Source of the DNA: Escherichia coli | Lineage (GTDB): Bacteria; Pseudomonadota; Gammaproteobacteria; Enterobacterales; Enterobacteriaceae | DNA length: 64,000 nt | Strand: one strand, 5' to 3' | Assembly (NCBI RefSeq): GCF_003334385.1 | Contig: NZ_QOWN01000006.1 | Shown here: positions 15,357 to 18,301 of the stretch, piece by piece | How positions within the stretch are numbered: the stretch's first letter is position 1 | Layout: every line of letters begins with the position of its first letter | Notes under the pieces: model-generated | What the model was told of the DNA's origin: nothing | Database searches by the model: none | The model's input: only the letters and a program-made list of their open reading frames with translations | Position numbers and translations under genes: made by a program

Positions 15357-17881
<2,525 letters not shown>

Positions 17882-17966
17882 CCTGACGACTCCCAACCTG
17901 CTTTTTTATGATTCTGGCATAACCTGGCGATAGCGTACCGCAAAACAGCGATAATTTTATAATGGT

Positions 17967-18103
17967 GGCATGATAAGACGCGACAGACATCGATAGTTTT
18001 ATAACGTAGGCATGATAAGACGCGATAGCGTCGCATCAGGCAATTCAGTGCAGACACTGGCACACCCGACCGGATGCGACGTGAGCGCCACATCCGGTCG
18101 GGT
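17967..18103. repeat. Extragenic repeat cluster: two direct copies of a 17-mer plus a 13-bp-stem palindrome (REP/BIME-like)
   Basis: ggcatgataagacgcga at 17967-17983 and 18009-18025; perfect inverted repeat acccgaccggatg / catccggtcgggt at 18064-18103. Confidence 0.45.
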
Positions 18104-18118
18104 GTTAATGATACCCTT

Positions 18119-18301
18119 TCAAACTTCTTCCGCAGGACGACTTCCCTCCCCCGGAACAAGCTCGGTTTCATGAAAAGCTTCCCGCTTGACCCCGTAACCG
18201 TCATACCAACGACACTCAACCATACCGCTGGAGTATCCGGTGACAATCATCCGCGGGCCGCCCTCTTTAACCGTAACTTCCTCACTAACCATAAAGCTCA
18301 T
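18119..18301 (-). CDS. yodC: Small protein YodC (DUF2158)
   Basis: 60 aa MSFMVSEEVTVKEGGPRMIVTGY. Confidence 0.85.
   Translation of the reverse strand: MSFMVSEEVTVKEGGPRMIVTGYSSGMVECRWYDGYGVKREAFHETELVPGEGSRPAEEV

Follow-up and report, generated by a model that had tools for sequence, protein, structure and literature searches.

The window analysed here, 64,000 nucleotides of an Escherichia coli chromosome, contains a cluster of repeats within the 237-bp spacer between yodC (18119-18301, minus strand) and the start of dgcQ (17881, minus strand). The yodC stop codon, TGA on the minus strand, occupies positions 18119-18121. Because both flanking genes are on the minus strand, the cluster would be transcribed as the 3' UTR of yodC, upstream of dgcQ. 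The dgcQ product is a diguanylate cyclase (c-di-GMP cyclase) that regulates cellulose synthesis; the longest dgcQ open reading frame has a TTG start at 17896 and is thereby five codons longer than with the RefSeq start in other genomes (17881). The RefSeq record of MG1655 has no repeat features annotated anywhere, not even after msrQ, and neither the supplements of the RepRanger paper nor the 2026 REP preprint (bioRxiv 10.64898/2026.03.23.713779) mention yodC or dgcQ.

Repeats and hairpins of the yodC-dgcQ spacer

The initial annotation had noted two direct copies of a 17-mer 42 bp apart. This 17-mer, GGCATGATAAGACGCGA, is indeed found exactly at 17967-17983 and 18009-18025, the distance being measured from start to start, and the window contains two exact copies in all. 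A chance origin of the pair was rejected, as only ~0.13 matches are expected in the window even when up to three mismatches are allowed. The 17-mer is the conserved core of a larger tandem unit of 42 nt, the two copies of which (17945-17986 and 17987-18028) are 86% identical; TRF reports a period of 42, 1.9 copies and a score of 127. On the plus strand, copy 1 consists of an AT-rich flank (17945-17963), the tetranucleotide GGTG (17964-17967) in the position of a GTAG motif, and the left arm of a Z2 REP, formed by the 17-mer at 17967-17983. Copy 2 consists of the AT-rich flank followed by GTAG and a Z2 left arm with the 17-mer at 18009-18025. The AT-rich half of the unit is single-copy in each genome, so that the tandem itself is a local duplication; the possibility that the whole 42-nt unit is a dispersed repeat was rejected on the same grounds.

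The second 17-mer pairs with positions 18028-18041 to form a hairpin of its own, which had been overlooked. This hairpin (18006-18041, plus strand) has the sequence GTAG-GCATGATAAGACGC-GATA-GCGTCGCATCAGGC, with GTAG at 18006-18009, arms at 18010-18023 and 18028-18041, and the loop GATA at 18024-18027. E. coli REPs are imperfect palindromes of 30-40 nt, preceded on the 5' side by a conserved GTAG and interrupted in the stem by two mismatched bases (Ton-Hoang et al., PMC3333891); the mismatch is required for TnpA_REP binding. With a length of 36 nt, 11 of 14 stem positions paired and a 4-nt loop, the hairpin fits this description, and it is extragenic, lying between the yodC stop and the dgcQ start. 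GTAG is present 5' of its foot, where copy 1 of the tandem has GGTG instead, and the stem contains AA (18017-18018) opposite GC (18033-18034), the double mismatch characteristic of the family. A third mismatch, A.G, results from a C-to-A change specific to this locus.

The motif is not confined to the yodC-dgcQ spacer. BLAST with a 37-mer containing the hairpin found at least 40 places per genome in all of the complete E. coli genomes (5,426/5,426), and in genomes that do not have the arrangement of the window the best matches elsewhere are still 90-99% identical. Near-identical hairpins have been printed for the nrdB and nrdG loci (PMC3009722). The GTAG, the stem mismatch, the high-copy relatives and the likeness to the nrdB and nrdG hairpins together identify 18006-18041 as a Z2-type REP. 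Judged by these features, the second 17-mer and the next 16 nt are a canonical member of the family, and the earlier statement that the repeat is not the canonical REP seen after msrQ does not hold. There is a canonical REP after msrQ, as stated, and it is of Y type, but this difference in type does not place the Z2 REP outside the family. The msrQ element is a single REP at 30948-30981 (GCCGGATGCGGCGCGAGCGCCCTATCCGGCCTAC, three mismatches to the published consensus) with no inverted partner nearby. An exact search of the window with a Z2 consensus gave no match, the local copy having the C-to-A change and a different loop; a looser core pattern found the hairpin.

A linker of 20 nt (18042-18061, plus strand; AATTCAGTGCAGACACTGGC), which forms a small 5-bp hairpin in the minus-strand RNA, leads from the Z2 REP to a palindrome at the 3' end of yodC (18062-18105, minus strand; arms 18062-18081 and 18086-18105, loop 18082-18085). 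The palindrome had been described as a perfect 13-bp stem ending at 18103. It is real, but it is longer, with 15 consecutive perfect pairs, or 20 pairs when two A.C mismatches on the plus strand are included. In the minus-strand RNA, which is the sense strand of yodC, these mismatches become G.U pairs, resulting in an uninterrupted 20-bp helix. A spacer of 13 nt (18106-18118, minus strand) separates the base of this hairpin from the yodC stop codon.

The Y-type core of the palindrome, CCGGATGCGACGTGAGCGCCACATCCGG, matches CCGGATGCGRCG..CGYCWYATCCGG; the published Y consensus, for comparison, is GCCGGATGCGGCGTGAACGCCTTATCCGGCCTAC. The GTAG/CTAC motif has been lost: the minus strand reads ACACCCGA-CCGGAT, compared with an expected GTAGG-CCGGAT. 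At the foot of the corresponding hairpin, unit A of E. whittamii reads GTAGGCCGGATAAGG. The canonical double mismatch has been lost as well, and the stem is 8 bp longer than that of a canonical Y REP. Elsewhere the hairpin has between one and six partial matches per genome (84-89% identity, E values of 0.2-8); at full length it is found only at the yodC-dgcQ locus. Its orthology to the canonical Y REPs of SCPM and of unit A in E. whittamii supports descent of the palindrome from a Y-type REP. Going by the motifs present, the Z2 hairpin retains the GTAG and the mismatch needed by TnpA_REP and the Y-derived hairpin does not, from which we infer that any residual transposase activity would be limited to the REP on the plus strand.

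With the Z2 REP in REP orientation and the Y-derived REP in iREP orientation on the plus strand, on either side of the 20-nt linker, the spacer has the arrangement of a BIME. This arrangement and the many relatives throughout the genome bear out the likeness to REP/BIME-type repeats that had been proposed. We consider it probable that the cluster is a partly decayed BIME (Z2 REP, linker and inverted Y-derived REP) preceded by the stump of an older unit, and that it serves to protect the yodC transcript and to attenuate read-through. The kind of element is already known; it is an ordinary, partly eroded member of the REP/BIME family. Like the E. coli REPs (Y, Z1, Z2), BIME-2 and atypical BIMEs, it features a 36-nt imperfect palindrome with a 5' GTAG and an AA/GC mismatch, an extragenic location and membership of a high-copy family. 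With BIME-2 and atypical BIMEs it further shares the inverted pairing across a linker and a copy number that varies between strains and species. It differs from typical members in the third mismatch of its Z2 REP, in having a Y partner without GTAG or double mismatch, and in that one of its two units is only a stump. Pseudomonas REPINs, hairpin-forming REP doublets mobilised by RAYTs, are likewise amplification units of two inverted REPs linked to a domesticated Y1 transposase family, but they belong to a different sequence family and host.

A described counterpart is modelled in Rfam as naRNA4 (RF02564), which represents one Y+Z2 unit of the REP325 array (PMC4550694). The model aligns end to end with 18009-18099 on the minus strand (43.3 bits, E ~1e-6), its Z2 half with the Z2 hairpin and its Y half with the Y-derived hairpin, but the alignment requires a 13-nt insertion in the linker and the score is below the Rfam gathering threshold of 59.5 bits. 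REP325, located between yjdM and yjdN, resembles our locus in placing a Y + Z2 pair between tandem genes, in the transcribed 3' UTR of the first gene. It differs in having six tandem units, compared with ~1.3 at our locus, and a linker that is ~13 nt shorter. The match of naRNA4 to the yodC-sense strand, together with an E. whittamii ortholog that scores above the gathering threshold, could be taken as a sign that the locus is a small RNA gene in its own right, of the naRNA type, encoding an HU-binding, nucleoid-associated RNA processed from both hairpins. We regard such a gene as very improbable, given that naRNA4 amounts to a description of any Y+Z2 REP pair, that the score of the window itself is below the threshold, and that a sigma-70 scan found no promoter on the minus strand of the spacer.

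Orthologous units in Escherichia and alleles of E. coli

When 100,044 species genomes were scanned for a degenerate yodC pattern, 37 loci were obtained. In other Escherichia, DsrA is located at the expected syntenic distance from yodC (L041 4731-4817, L031 191-278, L007 7-94), which confirms that the Escherichia loci retrieved are orthologous. Every Escherichia sequence contains, in this order, the AT-rich flank, a Z2 REP, a linker of ~25 nt, a Y REP and the yodC stop. Two complete units stand in tandem in E. whittamii; a single unit is present in each of E. albertii, E1V33, SCPM and MOD1-EC7003, the window has ~1.3, and K-12 has a decayed single unit. The naRNA4 scores fall from 61.4 bits in E. 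whittamii unit B, which is above the gathering threshold, to 55.1 in SCPM, 54.6 in E. albertii and 51.1 in E1V33, followed by the window and by the internally deleted unit A of E. whittamii (38.2); a search of the orthologous loci of K-12 and MOD1-EC7003 gave no match to naRNA4. The Escherichia species have orthologous units at a single locus, and we saw no evidence of recent mobility.

The two tandem copies in the window can be traced individually. Over the first 31 nt, copy 1 differs from E. whittamii unit A at 1/31 positions and copy 2 differs from E. whittamii unit B at 2/31, whereas copies 1 and 2 differ from each other at 5/31. The K-12 unit is identical to copy 1 over the same 31 nt. 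This matrix of mismatches reveals the orthology of the units, so that the duplication must be older than both E. coli alleles (see below). By this comparison, the direct repeat is the relic of an old two-unit array, in which the stump of unit A now adjoins unit B: copy 1 is what is left of the ancestral unit A, its right arm, linker, Y REP and spacer having apparently been deleted, and copy 2 is the left part of the ancestral unit B. The junction of the stump reads ...GACGCGACAG|ACATCG..., with CAG common to both end-points of the deletion. In the history we propose, the ancestral array would have lost ~90 nt of unit A, from the Z2 right arm to the spacer, at the CAG microhomology, giving the allele present in the window (long allele). 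A second allele (short allele; K-12, O157) would have originated by collapse to a single unit and deletions of 12 nt and 13 nt. A full two-unit junction as in E. whittamii was not found in the complete E. coli genomes searched. A set of 187 full-length matches of 76% identity was considered as an intermediate allele and rejected, as they represent a different BIME located between smrB and yfcO. Over 90 nt, this BIME (spacer of NZ_CP032515.1, L044 401-489; 187 genomes) shares 76% identity with the junction between the two units of E. whittamii, and the likeness includes the spacer between the REPs, a hint that BIME spacers may be shared between loci.

Among the 5,426 complete E. coli genomes, 1,215 have the long allele (~23%) and 4,146 have the short, K-12-type allele (~77%), which is also that of O157. 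The spacer of the short allele measures 170 bp. Compared with the long allele, it has lost the 54 nt that make up copy 2 and the right arm of the Z2 REP, as well as 13 nt from the apex of the Y hairpin; a 14-bp hairpin remains, equally far from the yodC stop. Between the alleles, the outer stem shows two compensatory pair changes (CCCGACC/GGTCGGG in the one, CCAGGCC/GGCCTGG in the other). Divergence between the alleles amounts to 14-17% in the BIME-derived segment and to 1-6% in the flanking genes. The loss of the Z2 hairpin and the Y apex from 77% of E. coli implies that intact REPs are dispensable at this locus.

Three further observations concern individual genomes. In the search of E. coli genomes with the spacer (17897-18118), 2 of 5,375 matching places are in records labelled as plasmids, which may reflect chromosomal segments carried by plasmids or replicons with a wrong label. 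In strain PEC1009 (NZ_CP160468.1, positions 1-755 of the locus), an IS30 element adjoins the BIME relic ~25 nt upstream of unit copy 1, at about window position 17920, and no dgcQ is annotated on the IS30 side, so that in this strain the insertion has disrupted or displaced dgcQ. The 5' part of dgcQ in strain EC22 (1-685) differs from window 17197-17881 at 44/685 positions (6.4%), which is two to three times the divergence of K-12, O157 or FDAARGOS_1288 and suggests a divergent or recombinant allele.

The AT-rich flank, TTTTATAA, is nearly invariant across Escherichia. As it is also single-copy in the genome, and as the unit is located 64-147 nt upstream of the annotated dgcQ start behind a conserved leader (17882-17944), the tandem might be viewed as a regulatory duplication, in which the AT-rich part is a promoter or operator of dgcQ and the long allele has gained a second promoter or site. 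However, a sigma-70 scan of the minus strand from 17882 to 18118 revealed no promoter-like site, and in E. whittamii the flank has been duplicated together with whole REP units, that is, it behaves as part of the BIME. The dgcQ literature yielded no information on a promoter or transcription start. We consider a regulatory duplication improbable.

The hairpin at the 3' end of yodC

The RNA of the intergenic region folds far better than shuffled sequences (z = -6.3). The hairpin is found 13 nt after the yodC stop in both E. coli alleles and persists in every Escherichia lineage, its stem being extended by 8 bp in E. coli and MOD1-EC7003. In seven sequences, covariation is modest (score of 0.181, compared with 0.123 in shuffles; 6/500 shuffles reach the score); at one position of the stem, five sequences have a GC pair and two have AU.

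Of the 30-odd loci outside Escherichia, nearly all have a CGCCCGG...CCGGGCG hairpin with a T-run within 0-12 nt of the yodC stop, and in most of them dgcQ is the next gene after this intrinsic terminator. The terminator takes the form AAACGCCCGG-loop-CCGGGCGTTTTT in Klebsiella, Enterobacter, Kosakonia, Buttiauxella, Cedecea, Phytobacter and Yokenella. It agrees with the Escherichia hairpin in position, in dgcQ synteny in most loci and in being a stable, GC-rich hairpin, but it has a T-run and no sequence similarity to REPs, whereas the Escherichia hairpin has no T-run. In two outgroup loci, a simple terminator scanner found nothing, although folding predicts GC hairpins followed by T-runs; the scanner probably misses these terminators by absorbing the T-run into the stem.

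The very stable hairpin directly after the yodC stop codon, where other genera have their intrinsic terminators, could be read as a classical Rho-independent terminator of yodC. We think it most unlikely that the Escherichia hairpin acts in this way, as no T-run follows it on either strand (the minus strand continues with GCCAGTGTC) and a terminator scan of the locus found no Rho-independent terminator.

The main alternative to our preferred reading is that the element is a purely neutral relic, a selfish or neutral REP doublet that was spread or amplified by TnpA_REP (RAYT) and is now eroding without any role for yodC or dgcQ. Both E. coli alleles are deletion derivatives, the majority allele now lacking the right arm of the Z2 hairpin and the apex of the Y hairpin, and the naRNA4 scores form a decay series across the lineages. 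The BIME-derived segment also evolves 5-10 times faster than its flanks, and in the literature both the copy number and the linkers of BIMEs are variable between strains at a given locus. Pure neutrality does not readily account for the survival, in both alleles and in every Escherichia sequence, of a strong hairpin 13 nt after the yodC stop, for the compensatory changes and the lineage-specific extension of the stem by 8 bp, or for the placement of the hairpin exactly where other genera have their intrinsic terminator. A functionless relic is therefore possible, but we are inclined to doubt it.

Possible roles of the element

REP hairpins block exonucleases. If the BIME is functional, the 20-bp Y-derived hairpin would block 3'-to-5' exonucleases and thereby stabilise the yodC mRNA. 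Together, the Y-derived and Z2 hairpins would attenuate read-through into dgcQ, in part in a Rho-dependent manner, as in REP325. The REP325 element of yjdM-yjdN stabilises the upstream mRNA and is a partial Rho-dependent attenuator, and REP-containing tandem gene pairs show a genome-wide bias towards expression of the upstream gene (bioRxiv 10.64898/2026.03.23.713779). Our locus matches this geometry, the hairpin base being 13 nt from the stop codon, and we therefore propose the same dual role. A function is also in keeping with the published finding that translation is reduced by REPs located less than 16 nt away from a stop codon (PMC12306157). Against the proposal, the legend to Figure 4 (panels G-H) of the 2026 preprint states that REPs have no general effect on mRNA half-life (bioRxiv 10.64898/2026.03.23.713779). 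The transcript-stabilising function suggested in the initial annotation fits the location in the yodC 3' UTR and the published biology of REPs. By analogy with REP325, the element likely stabilises the yodC mRNA and partially attenuates transcription into dgcQ.

A more far-reaching possibility is that the long and short alleles constitute a functional regulatory polymorphism, in which a REP pair replaced the yodC terminator in the Escherichia ancestor and its differential decay (an intact Z2 and a 20-bp Y hairpin in ~23% of E. coli, a 14-bp stump hairpin in ~77%) sets the stability of yodC mRNA and the read-through into dgcQ. We consider this unlikely; if true, strains would differ in biofilm behaviour in part through the effect of these alleles on dgcQ.

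Beyond correct annotation the importance of the element is small, since the variability of REPs and BIMEs and their roles in 3' UTRs are well documented. The locus does provide a clean, datable example of BIME decay, from a two-unit array to a 1.3-unit allele and a stump allele, with units that can be traced across Escherichia. It is also an example of a REP hairpin in the slot occupied by an intrinsic terminator in sister genera. Finally, the two E. coli alleles (~23% and ~77%) are a natural pair on which the stabiliser/attenuator model could be tested, in front of a gene for a c-di-GMP cyclase.
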